Source: Saccharospirillum sp.
Lineage (GTDB): Bacteria > Pseudomonadota > Gammaproteobacteria > Pseudomonadales > Natronospirillaceae
DNA length: 64,000 nucleotides
NCBI RefSeq assembly: GCF_039982735.1
Contig: NZ_JBDWXV010000003.1
Span: forward strand, 76,898-140,897
Reading direction: 5' to 3'
Part shown: one piece after another, positions 5,909 through 64,000 of the stretch
Numbering within the stretch: the stretch's first letter is position 1
How the letters are laid out: each line of letters begins with the position of its first letter
The notes under the pieces: generated by a model
Told to the model about the DNA's origin: nothing
The model's input: the letters and a program-made list of their open reading frames with translations, nothing else
Database searches by the model: none
Made by a program: the position numbers and the translations under genes

Positions 5909-7993
5909 CTACAACTGGAATCGTTTAATCGCCTGGTCAAGATGATCGGCGATTTCATTAAGTTCGGCGGTTCTCTGAACAGTCGACTCAAAGTCTGCTG
6001 CCACGACGGCACCAGTGTCACTAATGGTATTGGTGCGTTTGGTGATGTCTTCCGAGACCGCCTGCTGTTCGTCCGTGGCCACAGAAACCTGCCCATTAAG
6101 TTCGCTTACACGGGCGATGAAAGTGAGGTATTCGCTGAATGCTCCTTGCACATCGCCGACGCGACCGGAAATGTCATTCGCATCTTTTACGCTGGTAGAG
6201 ATAGACGCTACCGCCTCCCGGGACCCTGCCATCACACAGTCTATTTTTTCCGCAATTTCCTGGGTGTAGGTTTGCGTGCGACTGGCCAGTGTACGAACTT
6301 CATCGGCCACAACGGCAAACCCTCTTCCCTGCTCGCCAGCTCGTGCTGCTTCAATAGCAGCGTTGAGAGCCAGAAGATTGGTTTGCTCTGTGATATTTCT
6401 GATTACGTCGAGAATCTGGTCAATACCGGCTACTTCGCCATCAAGCGTCTCTATAACACCGGTCGCTTCCTGCATGGAAACGGTCAGTTTTTGATTGGAA
6501 TTAACGGCGGCTCTGACCGCCGTTTCTATATCATGAGCTCGCTCCTCGCTGCGCACCATTTCACCTGCAGCCTGCCGGGTATTATGTGCCACGTCACGAA
6601 CACTGGCTGCCATTTCAGTGACCGCCGCCGCCACCGAGTTGAGATCTTCACTCTGAAGGTTTAGGCGGGACCGCACAGACTTCGTTGATTCAGCAGTATC
6701 TGTGGAAATTGCATTAATATCGCGGTTAAGGTCAGCAATCCTGACGATCATCTCTCTTATCTTGTCGACCAGTTGCTCGGTCGAGTGAAAAATCTCGCCA
6801 ATTTCATCATTAGGGTAATTACCCACCCTGGCGCTGAAATCACCGTTACCCACCTGCTTCATATACTTGCTCAGCCTGTGAATGGGACGGCGCACACTGC
6901 GCACCACAACCCAGGAGACCGCCAGACACAGCAGCAGTATGACAATTGTAGCCACGATGACGATGTAGCGACCAACCGCTACCTGATCCAGCGCCGCCTC
7001 ACTGATGCCTGTTACTGCGGTATCGACTTGCTGTGACAGTGCCTGAAGGTTTCCGCCCGTATTGGCAAGACTGGCTTGAACGGCCTCTATCTTACCGGGC
7101 AATTCTGAGCGTATATCCACAAAGAGGTTGGTTTGCCGGGCGATCAGTCCATCGTTGGCGGTTGCCAGACTGTTAACCTGGTCAAACAAGGGATCGATTG
7201 CATCGTTATAGTCAGCAAAAGCAGGGTCAGCATCGACCTGATCGAAGATATCAAAGGTTAGAGTGGCAACCGCATCCAGGCTGTCTCTAAGGTCTGCCTG
7301 GGCAGACTCAATAACATCCAGACTGTCAGCCAGGGAGGCATTGATCGCCAGCAAGCTGACAGTGTCGAACAGTCTCTGTAGCCGAAAGGCAAGGGTTACT
7401 GCTTCAGGCGCTTCCATTCGAGCGAGGTTGGTGTCAAATGCCGGACCGGCTTCGGCACGCAGCCGGTCTATTTCCCCTCTGACCTCGGTAATGCGGGTTT
7501 CGGCTTCTATGGAACGCTCGTGGGTATTCATGTTCAGCGCTACCCGTTCGAACTGCTCCCGCGCCTGCTGCACTGACTGCGTTAACCGCGCTTCTAGCTC
7601 TGGCGACTGACTCAGTAAGGGAAAGTCAGTCGCCAGTCTGTCTGCCCTCTCATTGAAAGCCTGGATGTCTGACTCGACTCTGCCACGAATGGTCGCCATG
7701 ACATCCGCTTGCCTCGCGTTATAGTGCTCGGCCGCACCGGTACTGATGTCTTTCAACGTCAACCTGGCATCTGCCAGTGCTTCCTTTACCGGCAAGGCCT
7801 CAGTAACAAGGGAGTTCACACTCTGGCTGGACTGTTGCAAACTGAACAGACTCACACCGAGCATACACAGCACACCAATACCGACTAGTCCAAAGCCGAC
7901 ACTCAGACGGGTCACCAGCGTCAGCCGCGGTAAACTGAGGTACTTTTTCAACACTGTGATCCGGGTCATTCCAAGGGAACTGACAACCATCAC
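5909..7993 (-). CDS. methyl-accepting chemotaxis protein
   Basis: Two TM helices flank a helical periplasmic domain, followed by HAMP (DEIGEI) and the signalling hairpin QTNLLALNAAIEAARAGEQGRGFAVVADEVR. AGGAGG RBS upstream; the start may be the ATG at 7990. Confidence 0.95.
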   Translation of the reverse strand: MMVVSSLGMTRITVLKKYLSLPRLTLVTRLSVGFGLVGIGVLCMLGVSLFSLQQSSQSVNSLVTEALPVKEALADARLTLKDISTGAAEHYNARQADVMATIRGRVESDIQAFNERADRLATDFPLLSQSPELEARLTQSVQQAREQFERVALNMNTHERSIEAETRITEVRGEIDRLRAEAGPAFDTNLARMEAPEAVTLAFRLQRLFDTVSLLAINASLADSLDVIESAQADLRDSLDAVATLTFDIFDQVDADPAFADYNDAIDPLFDQVNSLATANDGLIARQTNLFVDIRSELPGKIEAVQASLANTGGNLQALSQQVDTAVTGISEAALDQVAVGRYIVIVATIVILLLCLAVSWVVVRSVRRPIHRLSKYMKQVGNGDFSARVGNYPNDEIGEIFHSTEQLVDKIREMIVRIADLNRDINAISTDTAESTKSVRSRLNLQSEDLNSVAAAVTEMAASVRDVAHNTRQAAGEMVRSEERAHDIETAVRAAVNSNQKLTVSMQEATGVIETLDGEVAGIDQILDVIRNITEQTNLLALNAAIEAARAGEQGRGFAVVADEVRTLASRTQTYTQEIAEKIDCVMAGSREAVASISTSVKDANDISGRVGDVQGAFSEYLTFIARVSELNGQVSVATDEQQAVSEDITKRTNTISDTGAVVAADFESTVQRTAELNEIADHLDQAIKRFQL

Positions 7994-54897: not shown

Positions 54898-55145
54898 TTA
54901 TGCAATTCTATTACTATACTGTCGATAGTGACTGACTATCCAGCGTTATACTGATCCACATCAGGCTGGCATCCTGGCTGCACCGCGATGCGGCCCTCGT
55001 GTTCTTCCCTACATCTGGTCCCTGTGGCACTTTTTAAAGGCCTTTTACATTTGCTGACAACGCCACCCTGAGTCAAAACCCGTTCAGTGGCCCGAATCCG
55101 AGAATCGCCCGTATATGGTTCAAACGATAGTCAATCGGAGTCATC

Positions 55146-55322
55146 ATGCTCAGTTTTTTGAAACGAGATACCACCAAGTCTTTGCAAAAAGCCTACGAAA
55201 AAAAGCTGACGGAAGCCCAGCAGGCACAACGCAACGGCGATATCCGCAGCTATTCAATGCTGTCTGAAGAGGCCGATAAGCTGTACCAGATGCTGCAGAC
55301 GGCTCAACAAGACAAGTCGTAA
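55146..55322 (+). CDS. small helical protein (DUF6435/Lacal_2735-like), 58 aa
   Basis: MLSFLKRDTTKSLQKAYEKKLTEAQQAQRNGDIRSYSMLSEEADKLYQMLQTAQQDKS; GGAG upstream. Below the ORF-track length cutoff. Confidence 0.75.
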   Translation: MLSFLKRDTTKSLQKAYEKKLTEAQQAQRNGDIRSYSMLSEEADKLYQMLQTAQQDKS

Positions 55323-55348
55323 CCACCCGCTTCACTGCCAGCCCGGTT

Positions 55349-56635
55349 TTAGGGTTTTGTTGTTTTGACAAACGGATCGTCACCCGCTTTGAAATGACCT
55401 GCTTTGCGGCGTTTCATCACCGAGTTGATGTAATCTTCCGTCGCTGCCGCCTGACCGACATCCCGTCCGGCGGCCTGGCTCAGATACCAGCGATGCTCGA
55501 GAATTTCATGGAAAACCTCGGCGTCATCGAGACTGCCTTTCAGATCGCTGGAAATGCTCTGCAAGCTGGGGTTAAACACCTCGGATAACCAGCGATAGGC
55601 AGCCACTGGCTCGGGAATGTCCCGGCCTTCGTGTTCGGCGAGAAAGGCTTTGTAGCGGCTCAGGTCATTTAGCAACCGGCGTGCCTGGTTTTCCTGCACT
55701 TGCAACCCGGTCAGGCTGTTCAGGCGGCGTCGGTGATGCCAGTGTTCCACCACTCGCGGCACCATGCGTACGCGTTGGCCATCGTCGACCGTGGTTATCT
55801 CCATTTCCTCGACATCGAAGCCCAGGTCATTCAGCCGTCGCACCCGCTGTTCAATTTTGAACTGATCTTCGGGTTCGAAGACCTCATCATGGGTCAGTTC
55901 CTGCCAGAGCTTGTTGTAACGGTCGACCACCGAATTGGCCAGTTCAACCGGGTCGGAGCCCGCCGGGAGCTGTTCGGCCGCCTCCAGATCCATCAGATCG
56001 CCGGCCAGATTTAACTCGGCCAGTTCCAGATCGTAGGCACGCTGGCCATCACTCAGCGTCGGGTAGATTTCACTGGTTTCAGCGTCGACCAGGTAGGCCG
56101 CCATCAGGCCCGCATCACGCCGGAACAGCGTATTGGAGAGTGAGCAATCGCCCCAGTAAATGCCACTGAGATGCAGCCGGGCGAGCAACTCAACCAGAGC
56201 GTCCAGCATCTGGCCGAGCTGCTCCATGGTGATGCCTTGCTGGATAATGATGCGGTAAGGCAAGGCGCCTTCCAGATAGTGTGTAACCAGCAGCGCACGG
56301 TTGCTCATGTCCATGCTATCCCCCACCAGATCGAAGTTCGATCGGGCCTGGGAGACGCCCTCATCCCGGTTGGTGACCAGGCCGACAGGTTCGACTACTG
56401 GCAAGCCCATTTCCTCCATCTCACGCAATAAGTTGTATTCATTGCGGGCGATGGGCGTCATCAGTTCCTTGAGTGCATAGACCCGCCCCTTGTTGCTGAT
56501 GAAACGAACCACGTTGCGATGAATTCCTCGCGCCACCTCAACAAAAAGATCCGGCGGCCATTGCGTCAGGTGCTTGGACCAGGGGTATCGCAAGTCGGTT
56601 ATGTAGTGGCTTGGCGAGTGAATCTGAATTTTCAT
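55349..56635 (-). CDS. DUF4032-type protein with protein/small-molecule kinase-like N-domain
   Basis: GIHRNVVRF, YALKE, LHLSGIYWGDCSLSNTLF catalytic-loop-like segment, LVDAET, and C-terminal HEILEHRWYLS. Start moved to the ATG at 56635. Confidence 0.8.
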   Translation of the reverse strand: MKIQIHSPSHYITDLRYPWSKHLTQWPPDLFVEVARGIHRNVVRFISNKGRVYALKELMTPIARNEYNLLREMEEMGLPVVEPVGLVTNRDEGVSQARSNFDLVGDSMDMSNRALLVTHYLEGALPYRIIIQQGITMEQLGQMLDALVELLARLHLSGIYWGDCSLSNTLFRRDAGLMAAYLVDAETSEIYPTLSDGQRAYDLELAELNLAGDLMDLEAAEQLPAGSDPVELANSVVDRYNKLWQELTHDEVFEPEDQFKIEQRVRRLNDLGFDVEEMEITTVDDGQRVRMVPRVVEHWHHRRRLNSLTGLQVQENQARRLLNDLSRYKAFLAEHEGRDIPEPVAAYRWLSEVFNPSLQSISSDLKGSLDDAEVFHEILEHRWYLSQAAGRDVGQAAATEDYINSVMKRRKAGHFKAGDDPFVKTTKP

Positions 56636-56658
56636 GAAGGGATCCCTGACACTGAAAC

Positions 56659-56686
56659 AAAAAAACCGGCTAACAAGCCGGCTTTC
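56659..56686 (-). terminator. intrinsic terminator between ABC ATPase and DUF4032 genes
   Basis: Minus strand CCGGCT-TGTT-AGCCGG followed by TTTTTTT. Confidence 0.65.
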
Positions 56687-56724
56687 GAGGGGCACTACAC
56701 ACGGTGGTTAACGCCAAACCGACC

Positions 56725-57819
56725 TTACAGACGGTTGGTGGTTTCACCGTCAAAAATGTGCAGTTTGTCGGCGTTCACATACAACACCAGGTCGTCGCCA
56801 ACCTTCGGTGTCTTATGCACATCCATTTTGGCAACGATGCTTTTATCGTCATTGGCCAACTTAGAGTGGACAACCACTTCATGACCCAGGGTTTCGACGA
56901 TTTGAGCCTTGGATTTAATTTCAGCAACGTTTTTCCAGTCGTGTTCGCCTTCGCCGCGAATGTGCTCGGGACGGAAACCAACATAGACCATCTTGCCTTT
57001 ACGTTCGCTGACGGACGCTTTCCACGCCTCTGGCGTTTTGTAGGTGATGTCCGGGTGCGTCAGTTCGGACCCGTCGTCCGACACGGTCATCTTCAGGATG
57101 TTCATGTTCGGGGTGCCGATAAACTGCGCAACAAAAACGTTTTGCGGATTGTCGTACAGATCGAGCGGTGTACCCACCTGACGCAGGTTACCGTCGTGCA
57201 ATACCGCGATGCGATCGCCCATGGTCATGGCTTCAACCTGGTCATGCGTTACATAAACCGAGGTGATGGAAAGACGCTTCTGCAGGTTGGCGATTTCAGC
57301 ACGCATGTGAACCCGCAGTTCGGCATCAAGGTTCGATAACGGCTCGTCAAACAGAAACACCGATGGTTTGCGCACAATGGCGCGACCCAGCGCTACACGC
57401 TGACGCTGACCACCGGACAAGGCTTTGGGCTTACGATCCAGCAAGGGCGTCAGGCCCAGAGTGTCGGCGGCTTCGCTGACCAGGCGGTCAATCTCGTCTT
57501 TGGGGAGCTTGCGCAAACGCAGACCAAAGGCAATGTTTTCATAGACCGACATGTGCGGATAGAGGGCGTAGCTCTGGAACACCATGGCAACGTCACGGTC
57601 TTTGGGATGGACGTTGTTAACCACCCGGTCGCCGATAAACAGCTTACCATCGGTGATCTCTTCCAGGCCGGCAATCATCCGCAGCGTGGTTGATTTACCA
57701 CAACCAGACGGGCCAACCAGAACCATAAATTCCTTGTCGCGGATCTCCAGATCGAGACCCTTGATGATGTCTACGTCGCCGTAGCTCTTCACTACGTTGT
57801 CAAATTTTATGCTAGCCAT
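56725..57819 (-). CDS. carbohydrate ABC ATP-binding protein (MalK/MsmX/UgpC type)
   Basis: GPSGCGKST, VFQSYALYPHM, LSGGQRQR, DEPLSNLD, FVAQFIGTP, C-terminal TOBE domain. No cognate permeases nearby. Confidence 0.95.
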   Translation of the reverse strand: MASIKFDNVVKSYGDVDIIKGLDLEIRDKEFMVLVGPSGCGKSTTLRMIAGLEEITDGKLFIGDRVVNNVHPKDRDVAMVFQSYALYPHMSVYENIAFGLRLRKLPKDEIDRLVSEAADTLGLTPLLDRKPKALSGGQRQRVALGRAIVRKPSVFLFDEPLSNLDAELRVHMRAEIANLQKRLSITSVYVTHDQVEAMTMGDRIAVLHDGNLRQVGTPLDLYDNPQNVFVAQFIGTPNMNILKMTVSDDGSELTHPDITYKTPEAWKASVSERKGKMVYVGFRPEHIRGEGEHDWKNVAEIKSKAQIVETLGHEVVVHSKLANDDKSIVAKMDVHKTPKVGDDLVLYVNADKLHIFDGETTNRL

Positions 57820-58017
57820 CAGCTTCCACTCATTTTTGTCGTTATACGAACCCAGTGCCGGGGCAAAGGATGTTTCAAGTGCCTTTGTAGTTTTCTTACA
57901 GGCATTTTCGACTCATCCGACGAATGGCTCCATTATAGCCGTAATAATACTACCAATTGCAAGCCCGAATCCGGACCTAACGCTGTAATTTCCTTCCAAA
58001 CCGCTCTGGAATGGGCC

Positions 58018-60231
58018 TTAGCCATCACCTCTTAGGGTGTTCAACTGCTGGCAAAAGGCCTTTATCGACGGTTTTGAGAACAACTCCGGCAGGGTTTCAG
58101 TCAGTTTCCGACGCCAGTTGGGGTATTCATCGCTGGTTCCGGGGATATTGACCGGCGCGTTGATCAGCATCAGATCCTCCAGTTGCACCGCCACAATTTG
58201 CGAGTGGCAGGCCGCCAGATGCCGGTGGATAGCCAGGCACAGTGGCAGCGTCATTTCGGGTACCTGTTCGGCATCGCTGGAGATACCGTCCGGCAGTCGA
58301 TTATGGGCGACAAGGGCATCGATGATTGCTTGTTTGGCTTTCGACCTGGCGTCGCGTTCGCCCTGAAAATCCGCCTCGGTGGCAAACATACCCAATTGCT
58401 GGCGCAGATCCAGATCCGACATGGCCCAGAAGGCATGCACGGTCGGCATGTCGTGGTTGCAGACGATGGCAAGGGCCCGCTGGGCGTAGTCTTCCGGCGG
58501 TGTACAGACGCCATCGGCCATTTCAAAGTAAAAGACCTTGTTTGAATAAAGCTGCGCACGCGGAAAAGTGTCGATCACCTCGTCCGGAACAGTGCCCAGG
58601 TCTTCAGCGATGACCATGCACTGGTTGCGCTGCGACTCCAGATTCAGAATACCCAGCAAATCGTACAGGTCGTAATACACATAAGCGCCATAAGCCGCCG
58701 ACTCGCCGGGCGGGCACCACCACAGACGCAACAGCGCCATGGCATGATCGATTCGCAGGGCACCACAGGCACGCATGTTGTTGCGCAACAGTGTAATGAA
58801 AGACTGGTAACCCTGGGCTTTCAGTTTAACCGGGTCAAATGGAGGCAACCCCCAGTTCTGACCGTTGGGCCCCAGAGCATCGGGCGGGGCTCCGACCGCT
58901 GCATTCAGGCAAAAACTCTCCCGGTTGCCCCAGACCTCCGCCCCACCGCGGTCGGCACCTACGGCGAGATCACGGTACAAGCCGATGCGCATACCGCGCG
59001 CTTTGGTTTGCCGGTCAACCGCCTGAAGCTGTTCGTCAGCCACAAACTGCAGGTACTGAAAGTAGCTAATGTCGTCGTCATGCTCGGCGGCAAACGCCTG
59101 CACCGCATCGCTGTGATGGTCCTGATACGCCTGCGGCCACTTTGGCCAGCCCCATGCCATGGGGTCTTGCTGGCGAAAATGGGCCAGTAGGGCTTCGAAG
59201 GTGGCATGCTCACGCAAGGGGTCACCCTGCTGCTCGACAAACGCCTGAAAGGCACGGTCACGATCGGTACCCCGCCCCAGATGGTCTCGCTGAAATACCC
59301 GATAGAGTGCATTAAGTGCCTGGTATTTGAGGGCACTGACGCCACTGTAATCGACCATGGGCAGTTCGCGCAGACGGCTCAGTTGTGCTTGCGTTTCAGC
59401 GCCAGCCAGTGTCTGTTGCAGCTCGGTCGCCGACTGGAATTCGGGCACCTGCTCAATAACCACGTAGAGCGGATTAACGTAGCTGCGGTTCGACGGGCTG
59501 TAGGGGCTGGCGTGTTCGGGACTGATCGGATAGAGCGAGTGAATCGGGTTCAGGCCGATCACATCCGCCCCCTGATCGGCCAGGGTATCAACCAGCTCGG
59601 CCAGATCCCCAAAATCGCCCATGCCCCAGTTCTTCGACGAGCGCAGCGTATACAACTGAATGGCCGTACCCCAGACACGATCGCCCCGTGCCATGGGTTC
59701 AGGCTGAAAACTGGTGGCCGGGGTCACGATCAGGGCGGTTTCATCGGTTTGACCGGCCAGAGTCAGATAAATGCGATGGTAGCCTTCGGGCAAATCTACA
59801 GGCAACGGCAGTGCCAGCCGCAGGTGTTCGATGTCGCCAATCCAGTAATCGCCGGTTTGCGTCAGTTCAGAGGGGTCAAACTGCCCTTCGCGCGCGGATG
59901 CATCGTGCTCAAATTCAATACGCCAGTGGCCGGTCTGCTGGCATTCATCACGGGTCAGGTAGAGGTTCAGGTCGTGACCGCGCAGCGGGTTAAGCACCAC
60001 CACCGGCTCAAGACGTTGCCGCCATTGCTGCTGATCCAGCTGCATGGCGCGCTGTGCCAGCCCGGCGTCATCGTCGAGGTCATAGCCCATGGCGGCGAGA
60101 ATGCGTTCAATGTTGGCCGCGTCGACTTGCGTGGCGACCCCACGATAGTCCTGAAAGGTGGAGGAAATGTTTCGCAAGTGAGCAAGCTTGCTGACCAGCT
60201 CCCCATTCGTCATAGAAACCCCAGTCGCCAT
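58018..60231 (-). CDS. malQ: 4-alpha-glucanotransferase (amylomaltase, GH77)
   Basis: WGMGDFGDL, SPYSPSNR, DLAVG, GAPPD, RIDHAMAL, AEDLG, CNHDMPT, NIPGT...YPNWRRKL. Start at the ATG at 60231 (GAGG RBS). Confidence 0.95.
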   Translation of the reverse strand: MATGVSMTNGELVSKLAHLRNISSTFQDYRGVATQVDAANIERILAAMGYDLDDDAGLAQRAMQLDQQQWRQRLEPVVVLNPLRGHDLNLYLTRDECQQTGHWRIEFEHDASAREGQFDPSELTQTGDYWIGDIEHLRLALPLPVDLPEGYHRIYLTLAGQTDETALIVTPATSFQPEPMARGDRVWGTAIQLYTLRSSKNWGMGDFGDLAELVDTLADQGADVIGLNPIHSLYPISPEHASPYSPSNRSYVNPLYVVIEQVPEFQSATELQQTLAGAETQAQLSRLRELPMVDYSGVSALKYQALNALYRVFQRDHLGRGTDRDRAFQAFVEQQGDPLREHATFEALLAHFRQQDPMAWGWPKWPQAYQDHHSDAVQAFAAEHDDDISYFQYLQFVADEQLQAVDRQTKARGMRIGLYRDLAVGADRGGAEVWGNRESFCLNAAVGAPPDALGPNGQNWGLPPFDPVKLKAQGYQSFITLLRNNMRACGALRIDHAMALLRLWWCPPGESAAYGAYVYYDLYDLLGILNLESQRNQCMVIAEDLGTVPDEVIDTFPRAQLYSNKVFYFEMADGVCTPPEDYAQRALAIVCNHDMPTVHAFWAMSDLDLRQQLGMFATEADFQGERDARSKAKQAIIDALVAHNRLPDGISSDAEQVPEMTLPLCLAIHRHLAACHSQIVAVQLEDLMLINAPVNIPGTSDEYPNWRRKLTETLPELFSKPSIKAFCQQLNTLRGDG

Positions 60232-60452
60232 AAAAACCTCAGTCAAAGTGCGGTTCAAACCTGACCGGCTGCGGACGCTGCATGCGACGATGTGTGTAGT
60301 CGTTGGTATCGCACCAGGCTCCGGGGCCAGTCACCCGTCTAGCCAGTGTAGCGAGCCTTGGCCCGGTTTTCGCGGTTCGTCCGCACCGGGCCGGAAGGAT
60401 TTATCGCCAGGAGGATTTCCCCGGCCGGGTGCAGCCGCACCAGCGCGCCTTA

Positions 60453-63400
60453 TCAGGCCATTTCCGGTGCATTCTCAACCAGGTAGGCGAGCGATTCCAG
60501 TAACCAGTACCGCACGGTCTCCGGCGGTGCCTGATAAAACTGCTGCCAGGCTTCACCTCGGAACTGGTTGTAGGCATCCGCCTGGCTGGCATGTTGGTGC
60601 TGCCAGCTTAAGCGCACGGCATGGGAAATCACCACATCGAGAATCACGAAGTCGTCGAGTTCCAGCAGCGGGTTCGCTTCCGCAAAAGCCATCAGTGCCG
60701 CAAGCGCTTCAACCGACATCTGGCGATACTCTGCACTTTCTATCTGGCTGAGCAATCGCTCAACCAGTTGGGCAAACTGGGGTTCGCCCCCGGTCATGTG
60801 ACTGGTCACCAGATCACTTTGCAGTCGGCTACGCGGATCAAACCGGTCGCCCACGACAACGCCCCGGCATTGTTGCAAAACCGACCATAGCCGCTGATGG
60901 AAGGATTCAGGGAAGCGAGGCATAACGCCCTGTTCTTCACGCCAGCTCTGCCAGTCAGCAACGTCGCTCTCGACCGTGGCGCCCGGCAAACCCTCCGCGC
61001 CCGAGTCGGCCCGATGCAGAACACCCGGCAGGCTGCGCAAATGCAGCGCTTCGGTGGAAAACAATCGACCCACTTCCTCGGTATAGCTTTCCAGAATGTC
61101 GCGAATCCGGCTCTGAATGTCGAAGGGGCTCATCGCCGCCAGGCGCTCAAAGGCCTGGTCAGGCTCCAGTGAGGCTTCCTGGGCAAATCGGCCCATCATC
61201 AGTTGGGCCAGGTGGCCCGGTCGTATGGTCATCATGCCGTCGAACAGTTCAGGCTCGCCTCGCATAATGACCGACAGAATGACGAGAATTTCCTGGTTGA
61301 GTATGGCCTCGCGCACATCGGCACCGCAGTTCTGGCGAATCAGCGCCAGCGTTTCCCGGTTGCTCAGCGGCATGCGAATAAGCCCCTGATCGGAGTAGGC
61401 CCGGCCGACATTGATGATGCGCTGACGCGCCAGTATTTCGGCCACTGAATCTTCCAGGCCACCCCAGTACTTGCCGAGCACCCCGGCGGCCTTGCGCAAC
61501 ACGCTCCATTCGTGGCGACAACTGGCTTTGCGATAGACCTCTTCCAGCAATACCTTAACCGTGACCCGCGGAGCAATGCCGGGCTCGAAATCCAGCCCAT
61601 GCACCTGGGCCCAGTCGGTGATGATGTCCATCTGTTCGCGCAGGTTCGTGCTGTTTTGCAGTCGGTCGCGTTGCTGATCGAGGTTTTCGCTCGGCTCCAG
61701 TAACGACAATACTGAGGGCTGAACCGGCTGACACTGATCGGCCTCGGGCAACCAGTTTTTACGGCGCAGTCGAACCAGGCTCAGTGCATCGGGTACGTAA
61801 TAATCGTTCAGGTCATCAATGCGTTCTGTGCCGACGTCATCCAGCAGTTCAAGCAAAGGACCGGTGCGCACGGTGACGCCGTTGCAGCTACCGGCGCTCA
61901 GCTCGGCAACCAGATCGAATACCGCCCCGGCGTCACGGGCGGTTGTCATGGTGTCCGTCAGGTAGAGCATCATCAGCGGTTGCTTGTCCTGATTCCAGTG
62001 ACGGCTGACGTACTTCAGCTCTGCCTGGACTTTTTCACACAGCAATTGGTTATCGGACGCCAGATAAAAAGTATCCCGATTCTGGAACTGGGGCAGAAAC
62101 ACGCAGCTCTCGCCACCCAGCTGATAAAGCTGTGCCGTTGCCAGCGAGCGCGGCCGGCGTTGTGGGCGACCGGTGAGGCCAAGCGTTCGGTTCTGACCGA
62201 CCACATTGAAGACTCGCGCCAGTTCCAGCGGTGGCAACACCCGCACCGGGTCCAACTGGTCGACGGTTTCCGACCAGAGGCCGCGCGCCGCCAGCCGGTC
62301 TTTCACCGCCTCGTTCTCGGCCAGCAGACCAACCAGCACCGGTGACCGCTGCTTGCGGCCAATGCGTTTGTGCGCGGCAACCGGGTCGAGTTCTTCGGTG
62401 GTGACCAGACCTTCGTGCACCAGACAACCGAGTACATAGAGCGACTGGGTCCACACCAGTGGCACGTTGGCATTGGCCACGCGTGGCTGGCTGCCCGGGT
62501 CTGCCCGTTCGGCATCGATGTGTTCCTGATCGACGTAGTACAGCTCGGGCAGCAGCCACAGGCCGTCTTTTTCGACGCGCAACGCATCCAGCTTGAGCCG
62601 GTATTCGTCGCTGCGTTCACGGTCTTCGGCGAACAGTGCATCGAGATACAGAAACGCAAAAAACAGCGGCCATTCAGATTCTATGTTTTCGAAATTACGC
62701 AGTTCGTCCGGCTCGTAATGCAGCCGGTCGTGGTTTTCCAGCACGGTCTGGTGTCCATCGAGCAGAAAACGCTTGCAGCCATAGCGACCGGCCAGTTTGT
62801 CGAGTATGTGTTCGCGGGTGGTATTGACCAGGCTCTTCTTTTCCACGGCAAACGCCGGGTAACCGATGACCGACAGACAGGCGGCATCGACTTCCTTCGA
62901 CAGGGATTCGCGCGGCAATAGGTTTTCGAGCGTCGTCCGGCAGCGGGCTATTTCATCCGGTACCACATGAATAACACCGCGGTAGCTGTGAGCGTCGTGC
63001 AACAGGTTCAGGCCACGCATCGCCTGCAGTGCAGCTTTTACCATGCCAACCGAAGACGCATTGATTTCAACGTGACCGTTGTTGATCTTGTTGCCCCGCT
63101 CCCAGATCCCGTAATCCGGTGTGCGGTAACCACGGCCGATGTACCAGACCAGGTTCTGGACAAAATTCACTTCGTCAACGCTGTGAATCAGGCGCAACCC
63201 GGAGCGTGTCATCTGTGCCAGCATCAACAGAAATATCGAGGTGGCATCGAGTTGCAGATGGCCCCATTTGTCGTCGTCGACCACGACGTCGCCACTTTGG
63301 GTGCCGTACTTGGCGTGCAGTGCATCCATAGGGTTCTGGGTGTATTTGAACCGCTCGACTTTGTGCGACTGGCGCAACATGGCCGACAACAGGCCGCGCA

Positions 63401-63671
63401 TCAGCCGGGTCACACAGTCGCCCAGGTATTCGGTACGCCCCGGGTTATGGTTGGTGCGCCGATAGCCGAGCCAAAGGCCCCAGACTGCCTGAACGGAATA
63501 AACGTTGTCACGCACCCAGGCATCGGTGTAGTCACCGTGACCGTTTACGTCAGTACTGGCCGGAAACAGACCGGTTTTGGCATCCTGACGGCTTAAAATG
63601 GTGGCGTAGACTTCGTCGAAATACTGATCAAGGCGCTCGCTCGCGCCCTGTTGATCGATAGCATCGTTCAT
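60453..63671 (-). CDS. phosphorylase kinase alpha/beta-subunit-like protein (GH15-like)
   Basis: DAWVRDNVY, WGHLQLDATS, PDYGIWERGNK, YGCKRFLLDG, ESEWPLF and C-terminal MTGGEPQFA...EYRQMSVEAL match eukaryotic PHKA/PHKB motifs as recalled; 1072 aa. Confidence 0.88.
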   Translation of the reverse strand: MNDAIDQQGASERLDQYFDEVYATILSRQDAKTGLFPASTDVNGHGDYTDAWVRDNVYSVQAVWGLWLGYRRTNHNPGRTEYLGDCVTRLMRGLLSAMLRQSHKVERFKYTQNPMDALHAKYGTQSGDVVVDDDKWGHLQLDATSIFLLMLAQMTRSGLRLIHSVDEVNFVQNLVWYIGRGYRTPDYGIWERGNKINNGHVEINASSVGMVKAALQAMRGLNLLHDAHSYRGVIHVVPDEIARCRTTLENLLPRESLSKEVDAACLSVIGYPAFAVEKKSLVNTTREHILDKLAGRYGCKRFLLDGHQTVLENHDRLHYEPDELRNFENIESEWPLFFAFLYLDALFAEDRERSDEYRLKLDALRVEKDGLWLLPELYYVDQEHIDAERADPGSQPRVANANVPLVWTQSLYVLGCLVHEGLVTTEELDPVAAHKRIGRKQRSPVLVGLLAENEAVKDRLAARGLWSETVDQLDPVRVLPPLELARVFNVVGQNRTLGLTGRPQRRPRSLATAQLYQLGGESCVFLPQFQNRDTFYLASDNQLLCEKVQAELKYVSRHWNQDKQPLMMLYLTDTMTTARDAGAVFDLVAELSAGSCNGVTVRTGPLLELLDDVGTERIDDLNDYYVPDALSLVRLRRKNWLPEADQCQPVQPSVLSLLEPSENLDQQRDRLQNSTNLREQMDIITDWAQVHGLDFEPGIAPRVTVKVLLEEVYRKASCRHEWSVLRKAAGVLGKYWGGLEDSVAEILARQRIINVGRAYSDQGLIRMPLSNRETLALIRQNCGADVREAILNQEILVILSVIMRGEPELFDGMMTIRPGHLAQLMMGRFAQEASLEPDQAFERLAAMSPFDIQSRIRDILESYTEEVGRLFSTEALHLRSLPGVLHRADSGAEGLPGATVESDVADWQSWREEQGVMPRFPESFHQRLWSVLQQCRGVVVGDRFDPRSRLQSDLVTSHMTGGEPQFAQLVERLLSQIESAEYRQMSVEALAALMAFAEANPLLELDDFVILDVVISHAVRLSWQHQHASQADAYNQFRGEAWQQFYQAPPETVRYWLLESLAYLVENAPEMA

Positions 63672-63755
63672 TCACTGACACTCCAGAGTGGCGCAGTACA
63701 ACAACCCATTGTGCAACCTTTATGCCTAACGGGTACCGAGCTCAAAAAAGCATGA

Positions 63756-64000
63756 TCAGTTCTGATTCGCCAACTCACAGGCTTCACGGGCGAGTTGCTC
63801 AATGCGATCCCAGTCGCCCTGATTCAGCGCATCGGCCGGCACCACCCAGGAGCCACCAACGCACACCACATTGGGCAGCGCCAGGTACTGGGTAAAGTCG
63901 TTCACTGAAATGCCGCCTGTGGGGCAGAATTTCACATCCGGGAAAGGCCCGGCAAAGGCCTTCAGCGCCGAAACACCGCCCGAGGCAGCAGCCGGGAAAA
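63756..64000 (-). CDS. eda: KDPG/KHG aldolase, C-terminal fragment (truncated by window end)
   Basis: [30 protein letters not shown]...[10 protein letters not shown]. Not in the ORF track. Confidence 0.9.

Follow-up and report, generated by a model that had tools for sequence, protein, structure and literature searches.

A full-length bacterial relative of the phosphorylase-kinase alpha/beta subunits in a glucose and alpha-glucan gene array of Saccharospirillum: a probable cytoplasmic glucosidase, and a recurrent malK-DUF4032 gene pair

The gene content at the 3' end of a 64-kb stretch of Saccharospirillum sp. DNA (assembly GCF_039982735.1, contig NZ_JBDWXV010000003.1, positions 76,898 to 140,897) was analysed; the whole stretch is called the window and positions are counted from its first letter. 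The genes in question are four co-oriented minus-strand genes, encoding a relative of eukaryotic phosphorylase kinase (PhK) subunits alpha and beta, referred to as the PHK-like protein, the glucanotransferase MalQ, the sugar ATP-binding cassette (ABC) ATPase MalK and a protein of the DUF4032 family. Over its full length the PHK-like protein belongs to the phosphorylase-kinase alpha/beta family, of which it is a new bacterial member; the databases already label this family. Its GH15-type catalytic machinery appears intact at the sequence level, and residues and gene context together indicate that the protein is most likely a cytoplasmic exo-acting glucosidase. The locus is a glucose and alpha-glucan catabolic array, ordinary except for an unexplained pairing of malK with the DUF4032 gene. 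The balance of evidence favours reading the whole as a glucan array with a PHK-like glucosidase, a stand-alone MalK and a separate DUF4032 protein, without a complex resembling phosphorylase kinase, and this reading is considered fairly probable.

The domain composition of the PHK-like protein (63671..60453) was assigned with Pfam. Glyco_hydro_15 (PF00723, E 1.8e-71) occupied residues 13-817 and KPBB_C (PF19292, E 4.3e-80) occupied residues 832-1069, covering positions 2-235 of the 238 in the profile. Comparison with the sequences of the PDB gave human PHKA1 (E 1.5e-195) and PHKB (E 3.5e-152) as matches over the whole length. The alignment with PHKA1 ran in three collinear stretches, with about 600 residues at a domain E of 5.5e-164. 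The AlphaFold2 (AF2) model, with a predicted local distance difference test score (pLDDT) of 80, matched PHKA and PHKB chains at template-modelling scores (TM) of 0.70-0.72, with 35% and 29% identity respectively over about 1090 aligned columns, and the next fold matches after PhK were the catalytic domains of Aspergillus niger glucoamylase. A profile built from 20 bacterial PHK-like proteins and run against the PDB sequences at E 0.01 reached PHKA and PHKB only and no classical GH15 structure; hence a residue-by-residue alignment to a characterised glucoamylase could not be based on sequence.

The residues W52, R54, D55, Q140, D142, W190, E191, R192, R301, E376 and W407 were found to be invariant in 20 PHK-like homologues from several phyla. 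Among these, E191 (in WERG) and E376 (in LPELY) align to E185 and E371 of PHKA1, which are named as the catalytic glutamates in the cryo-EM study of the human enzyme (PMC10978961). The original prediction had put forward the glutamates of WERG and ESEW as catalytic mutation targets; the WERG glutamate stands, whereas the ESEW glutamates are conserved yet distinct from the catalytic pair, which the PHKA1 alignment places at E191 and E376. The N-terminus of the protein is hydrophilic, and it therefore looks cytoplasmic.

The likeness to human PHKA1 and PHKB (PDB 8JFK, 8JFL, 8Z5M) thus extends to the GH15-like D1 and KPBB_C domains, to full-length collinearity and to the retention of both PHKA1 glutamates. 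The bacterial protein differs from them in having neither a gamma kinase nor a calmodulin partner, in ending at ...NAPEMA with no CaaX farnesylation box at the C-terminus, and in a gene context of glucokinase, Entner-Doudoroff and glycogen genes. The alignment also breaks at about PHKA1 609-768 and 965-1047, regions with no aligned counterpart in the bacterial protein, which speaks against regulatory phosphorylation loops of the animal type. With the GH15 glucoamylases (A. niger, PDB 6FRV and 1GAH) it shares the (alpha/alpha)6 fold, the general acid and base glutamates and the WxRD, QxD and WE motifs. It differs from them in lacking a starch-binding or N-terminal beta-sandwich domain and in carrying about 600 additional PhK-type residues; those glucoamylases are secreted, while the PHK-like protein is predicted to be cytoplasmic.

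The original prediction had described the four co-oriented genes as encoding a GH15/KPBB_C protein, MalQ, an orphan MalK and a DUF4032 protein, and all four ORFs (open reading frames) were present where it had placed them and were confirmed by Pfam. The features of the locus are as follows, in the direction of transcription.

63756..64000, minus strand: 3' end of eda (2-keto-3-deoxy-6-phosphogluconate, KDPG, aldolase), the last gene of zwf-pgl-edd-glk-eda, from the sequence and Pfam on this genome.
60453..63671, minus strand: PHK-like protein, 1072 aa, a probable cytoplasmic exo-alpha-glucosidase (Pfam GH15 and KPBB_C, PHKA1/PHKB homology, fold).
58018..60258, minus strand: malQ, a long E. coli-type GH77 4-alpha-glucanotransferase (Pfam MalQ_N and Glyco_hydro_77, TIGR00217).
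57984-57998: second HexR-type box with 1 mismatch, upstream of malK.
57886..57900, no strand assigned: HexR-type operator candidate, TGTA-N7-TACA with an AT-rich centre, located upstream of malK at a distance of about 65-80 nt.
56725..57819, minus strand: malK/msiK-type sugar ABC ATPase gene with no adjacent permease genes (Pfam ABC_tran, OB_MalK and TOBE_2, NCBIfam UgpC).
56661..56686, minus strand: intrinsic-terminator-like hairpin with an 11-bp stem and a T-run, between malK and DUF4032.
55349..56635, minus strand: DUF4032 protein, 428 aa from ATG 56635 (Pfam DUF4032 and Kdo, invariant kinase motifs, AF2 fold).

Past the window edge, on the same strand of the same genome, the genes eda, glk, edd, pgl and zwf lie upstream and were typed by Pfam as Aldolase, Glucokinase, ILVD_EDD, Glucosamine_iso and G6PD. 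The order of the array is zwf-pgl-edd-glk-eda-PHKlike-malQ-malK-DUF4032, and hexR (HTH_6 and SIS) together with gap is divergent from the zwf-pgl-edd-glk-eda part. The closest homologues are those of Saccharospirillum, with 97-98% identity to S. alexandrii. Going downstream from the PHK-like gene, the three spacers measure about 195 nt (to malQ), 198 nt (from there to malK) and 89 nt (from malK to DUF4032), in accordance with the spacers of about 200 nt and the terminator (hairpin with T-run, 56686-56661) noted earlier. The earlier statement that the window holds no glgP was also correct: none occurs within the 64 kb, and the single glgP of the genome is on another contig.

The gene context of the PHK-like gene was examined by neighbour clustering at 76 genome loci, of which 7 belong to Saccharospirillum and 69 to other groups (cyanobacteria, Abditibacteriaceae, Campylobacterota, Alteromonadaceae, Cellvibrionaceae, Burkholderiales, Polyangiaceae, Saprospiraceae and others). 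A glucokinase gene was located within 5 kb of the PHK-like gene in 16/76 loci, and within 400 nt in 8 of those 16; these loci come from Saccharospirillum, Halarcobacter, Sulfuricurvum, Sulfurimonas, Sulfurospirillum, Thiotrichales and Cellvibrionales. Two Campylobacterota loci additionally have zwf, edd and eda nearby. GlgB lies near the gene in 7/76 loci, a GlgC-PGM fusion in 4/76, and MalQ in two loci outside Saccharospirillaceae. The Saccharospirillum genome under study carries glgC-glgA, one glgP and a tandem pair of CBM48 GH13 proteins with sizes fitting GlgB and GlgX, and therefore glycogen is expected to be both made and degraded.

In the proposed pathway, the PHK-like protein would remove glucose from maltodextrins or glycogen-derived chains in the cytoplasm, while MalQ would disproportionate those chains and so reshuffle them for it. 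The released glucose would pass through glucokinase (Glk) into the Entner-Doudoroff pathway. MalK would act as a stand-alone ATPase, probably controlled by HexR and likely powering several sugar ABC importers. The DUF4032 protein would be a separate kinase or ATPase of the WaaP/Bud32 type, with malK (malQ in another clade) and not the PHK-like gene as its evolutionary partner. Indirect debranching, in which MalQ would move a chain and the PHK-like protein would take off the alpha-1,6 stub by analogy with the eukaryotic debranching enzyme, is a conceivable role, but one not needed here given the GlgB- and GlgX-sized pair.

Several points weigh against the assignment as a glucosidase. Human PhK alpha, which has the same two glutamates, was inactive on maltose, isomaltose and glycogen (PMC10978961). 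Confidence of the AF2 model is low in two loops close to the active site, residues 188-200 and 295-328. The approximately 600 residues outside GH15 (D2-D5), which are conserved with eukaryotic PhK, are not explained by a simple glucosidase role. The gene neighbourhood is correlative evidence, and a GH15 specificity for trehalose, isomaltose or alpha-1,6 limit-dextrin stubs would fit it equally. The literature searched contained no enzymology or functional study of any bacterial member of the PHK-alpha/beta family; a 2024 review of prokaryotic alpha-glucan enzymes, in its available text, treats GH15 for archaea only and leaves phosphorylase kinase unmentioned.

Some of these points could be accommodated if the PHK-like protein were not an enzyme at all and had a structural or regulatory role in which it binds glucan or oligosaccharide, with its 'catalytic' residues used for ligand binding only. 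The inactivity of the human subunit on three substrates agrees with this, as does the finding that acarbose binds to PhK and activates it (PMC10978961), and the conservation from bacteria to humans of the residues beyond GH15 suggests a non-catalytic role such as oligomerisation. Against it, the entire GH15 catalytic constellation, and not the binding residues alone, is invariant across distant bacterial phyla; the gene repeatedly adjoins that of glucokinase, whose substrate is free glucose; and no partner gene open to regulation recurs across lineages at the fetched PHK-like loci. A non-enzymatic role is thus regarded as rather unlikely. The glucosidase assignment agrees with one of the two readings in the original prediction, an active glucoamylase working with MalQ: the invariant residues, the cytoplasmic appearance and the glucokinase, Entner-Doudoroff, GlgB and MalQ neighbours speak for an activity of this kind as far as sequence can indicate, and the inactive human subunit speaks against it.

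The other of those two readings depended on the DUF4032 protein, and its features were analysed likewise. The ORF 56695..55349 matched DUF4032 (PF13224, E 4.5e-65) at residues 262-426, and the Kdo/WaaP-type family PF06293 at E 7.5e-9 (35.8 bits against a cut-off of 21.3), with a weak APH match; its scores with the NCBIfam Kdo kinase and Bud32 models were far under the cut-offs. The homologues begin MK(I/F)Q, and therefore the start is most likely ATG 56635 and not GTG 56695. A start at GTG 56695 would cross the terminator hairpin, while ATG 56635 is located downstream of it. In the numbering of the 428-aa protein, K56, E66, D163 and N168 (GDCSLSN) and D184 (VDAET) do not vary among 20 homologues, and a large part of the C-terminal DUF4032 domain is likewise invariant. 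The kinase-like Lys, GDCSLSN and D-x-E motifs pointed out in the original prediction are therefore real. This invariance gives the protein the look of a catalytically competent enzyme of the Kdo/WaaP-RIO-Bud32 type, either a kinase or an ATPase. The protein search returned at least 8000 matches for the DUF4032 family, and the literature search returned no paper containing DUF4032 or PF13224. In Reinekea blandensis (L086 15200-16429), the DUF4032 gene behind malK was called in three pieces of 148, 33 and 243 aa, representing either a frameshifted pseudogene or sequencing errors.

The AF2 model of the DUF4032 protein had a pLDDT of 75.5. Foldseek gave WaaP (6dfl) and PRPK (6wqx) as the best folds, and WaaP, PRPK, APH and MAP kinases were among the best matches at probability 1.0. 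The N-terminal domain shares its fold and its Lys/Glu/Asp-Asn/Asp motifs with WaaP, the lipopolysaccharide (LPS) heptose kinase (6DFL), and with Bud32/PRPK (6WQX), and the loop GDCSLSN resembles the GDLxxxN loop of the kinase chain 8k20_B (HGDLTTSN). It differs from WaaP and Bud32/PRPK in that identity is 14-17% and TM about 0.3 against the whole DUF4032 model, in that these proteins lack the large conserved C-terminal helical DUF4032 domain, and in that the present locus offers no LPS or KEOPS context.

In the second reading of the original prediction, the PHK-like protein would sense glucan and serve the DUF4032 kinase as a scaffold, the pair being a prokaryotic analogue of PhK; the target of the kinase would then be glycogen phosphorylase or another glucan enzyme. 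In its favour, the two genes lie co-oriented in a single cluster in Saccharospirillum, some Reinekea and Gynuella, the DUF4032 protein keeps all kinase catalytic residues, and domains D2-D5, the non-catalytic part from which the animal PhK scaffold is built, are retained in the PHK-like protein. Both genes are moreover rare in Gammaproteobacteria at large: in an even sample of 400 genomes KPBB_C was found in 9, a strong DUF4032 match in the studied genome only, and both together in that genome only. A lineage-specific functional link is thus conceivable, which is one more point against the separation of the two proteins made here. The rarity of both genes in the sample, their frequency in Saccharospirillaceae, and the fact that the next-closest PHK-like proteins are cyanobacterial (about 49% identity) suggest that Saccharospirillaceae acquired the PHK-like and DUF4032 genes horizontally.

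The distribution of the two genes did not support the scaffold. The order PHK-like-MalQ-MalK-DUF4032 was seen only in the 7 Saccharospirillum loci among the 76, and DUF4032 lay within 10 kb of the PHK-like gene in 0/69 of the loci outside that genus. It was not found in three PHK-like-bearing genomes of other phyla in which it was sought, and among the control genomes KPBB_C gave a signal only in Synechococcus elongatus and DUF4032 only in Thermus thermophilus and Corynebacterium glutamicum. Within the 38 genomes of Saccharospirillaceae the genes are also uncoupled: the PHK-like gene is present in 23 and DUF4032 in 34, with DUF4032 alone in 13 and the PHK-like gene alone in 2. The two are 855 kb apart in one genus, and the arrangement glk/eda-malQ-malK-DUF4032 exists in 10 genomes, e.g. 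Salinispirillum marinum, without a PHK-like gene. In three Saccharospirillum species (G425, G427, G432) the KPBB_C and DUF4032 matches are about 2.2 kb apart, which leaves room for malK and not for malQ, so that malQ seems to be elsewhere in these species. At the locus itself, two genes and a terminator separate the PHK-like gene from DUF4032, and glgP is on another contig. No PhK gamma chain was among the 50 fold matches listed for the DUF4032 model; unlike the PhK holoenzyme, the only kinase-like neighbour here has a fold nearest to WaaP and Bud32/PRPK. Phylogenetic profiling of the two genes, which the original prediction itself had named as a test able to refute the scaffold, linked them only inside Saccharospirillaceae. 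The scaffold is accordingly judged very improbable. Since the genes neither co-occur nor co-locate outside one family and are uncoupled within it, a bacterial phosphorylase-kinase-like complex of the four genes is not supported and the idea can be set aside; with this coupling the 'phospho-regulated alpha-glucan system' of the earlier title also loses its support.

Given a separate DUF4032 protein, its pairing with the maltodextrin genes was analysed in its own right. Every Saccharospirillum locus, and 16/20 other genomes of the family, have malK directly upstream of DUF4032 and on the same strand. The same adjacency was observed in the unrelated metagenomic lineages L092, L145, L150, L163/L164 and L170, and in L199, a genome from the phylum of genome G438, where MalK is 56% identical; six further loci outside the family carry a MalK-type gene within 8 kb of DUF4032. 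In a sister clade (L094, L097, L100, L105) malQ, and not malK, is directly upstream. At L094 (1-3770, a metagenomic lineage) DUF4032 and malQ come after genes for two Glucodextran_C-domain proteins and for one 699-aa protein that matched no Pfam family, a gene set possibly forming a further alpha-glucan module. In a maximum-likelihood phylogeny of 87 DUF4032 proteins, malK or malQ adjacency was seen in 14/21 loci of the branch holding the DUF4032 protein of the window, while for several of the others the flanking sequence was too short for a call. The remaining branch, which is larger, shows the malK/malQ link sporadically, and in the sample from the phylum of G438 it was present at 1/9 loci. 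Most loci outside the window's branch have no alpha-glucan gene nearby, and the other neighbours of DUF4032 (MFS, XdhC-like, beta-helix, and pyridoxal-phosphate-dependent (PLP) enzyme genes) are lineage-specific, with no common theme. The link of DUF4032 to alpha-glucan and sugar-uptake genes is thus recurrent and far above chance expectation, and it is not universal.

This pattern allows the reading that the DUF4032 protein has its function in the uptake of carbohydrate or in the metabolism of alpha-glucans, as a small-molecule (sugar) kinase or as a kinase/ATPase switch on MalK or MalQ, and that the pair with malK is independent of the PHK-like gene. The recurrence of malK upstream within the family and in unrelated lineages, the malQ-bearing sister clade and the tree branch all point in this direction, as does the sugar kinase WaaP as the best fold match. 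The sparse link outside the window's branch tells against it; further, in Saccharospirillaceae a terminator separates the two genes and malK alone has HexR-type boxes, synteny within one family may be merely inherited, and the substrate is unreadable from sequence, the RIO/Bud32-like catalytic loop fitting an ATPase as well. Such a function is a serious possibility, although it falls short of being probable. The wider statement, that DUF4032 is a widespread family of WaaP/Bud32-like kinases wired to MalK or MalQ in several unrelated lineages, which might phosphorylate a sugar or switch MalK-dependent uptake and alpha-glucan turnover and which stands beside a PhK homologue only through a shared pathway, is offered tentatively and is on the doubtful side. 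The repeated placement of DUF4032 directly behind malK or malQ is an unreported regularity and a first functional lead for DUF4032.

The assignments of malQ and malK were clear from the domain searches. The malQ ORF (60258..58018) matched Glyco_hydro_77 (PF02446, E 8e-119) and MalQ_N (PF21226, E 1e-11), with 563.8 bits for TIGR00217 of NCBIfam against a cut-off of 205.65, and its start may be ATG 60230. The malK ORF (57819..56725) matched ABC_tran, OB_MalK and TOBE_2 and exceeded the cut-off of the NCBIfam UgpC subfamily model. No permease ORF is adjacent to malK. In a rough tblastn count on the same genome, 13/15 CUT1-like permease loci had no MalK-type ATPase within 6 kb, a count that misses more distant ATPases such as the one on contig C15. 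The permease-less malK and the ATPase-less permease loci together suggest one shared ATPase, and malK probably encodes a multitask ATPase for several CUT1 importers. Multitask sugar ABC ATPases include MsiK of Streptomyces, MsmX of Bacillus subtilis and MalK1 of Thermus thermophilus. Like these, the present malK has an OB_MalK/TOBE domain and is placed away from permeases, with most CUT1 loci lacking an ATPase of their own, although sharing is deduced here from the rough count. A multitask ATPase followed by a conserved DUF4032 gene is not known to have been described, and the literature searched contained no such case.

The regulatory signals were also compared. TGTA-N7-TACA is taken here to be the HexR operator consensus, and the boxes are sequence candidates for it. 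The box at 57886-57900 is the sole perfect match to this pattern in the window and is closely similar to the one preceding gap in the same genome. The boxes of the zwf region (locus L175 of this genome) are at 5990-6055, in the zwf/hexR intergenic region, and at 7176-7190, upstream of gap. HexR-type boxes upstream of malK are conserved in Saccharospirillum and Reinekea and occur also before zwf and glk, while about 20 relatives showed none ahead of the PHK-like gene, of malQ or of DUF4032. Taken with the permease-less malK and the ATPase-less permease loci, this suggests one shared MalK ATPase under HexR control. Almost every Saccharospirillaceae locus examined has a GC-rich hairpin and a T-run behind malK. 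With this separate terminator after malK and with HexR-type boxes restricted to malK among the four, the genes do not look like a single operon. A promoter scan of 55000-64000 gave no sigma-70 consensus site; upstream of malK, TTGCAA-19 nt-TATAAT is a candidate noted by eye only, and nothing is built on it. A 58-aa ORF (55146-55322, plus strand), helical-looking and rich in charged residues, is convergent to DUF4032 and lies between it and the peroxiredoxin region.

The bacterial relatives of PhK alpha and beta offer a tractable system for asking whether the glucoamylase-like domain of PhK has, or once had, enzymatic activity, and their gene context of glucokinase, Entner-Doudoroff genes, GlgB and MalQ predicts the release of glucose from storage glucan. 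For DUF4032, a domain of unknown function whose members number in the thousands, the placement beside malK or malQ is a lead, and a DUF4032 protein that switches MalK or MalQ would, if true, add a new level of control to carbohydrate import in bacteria.

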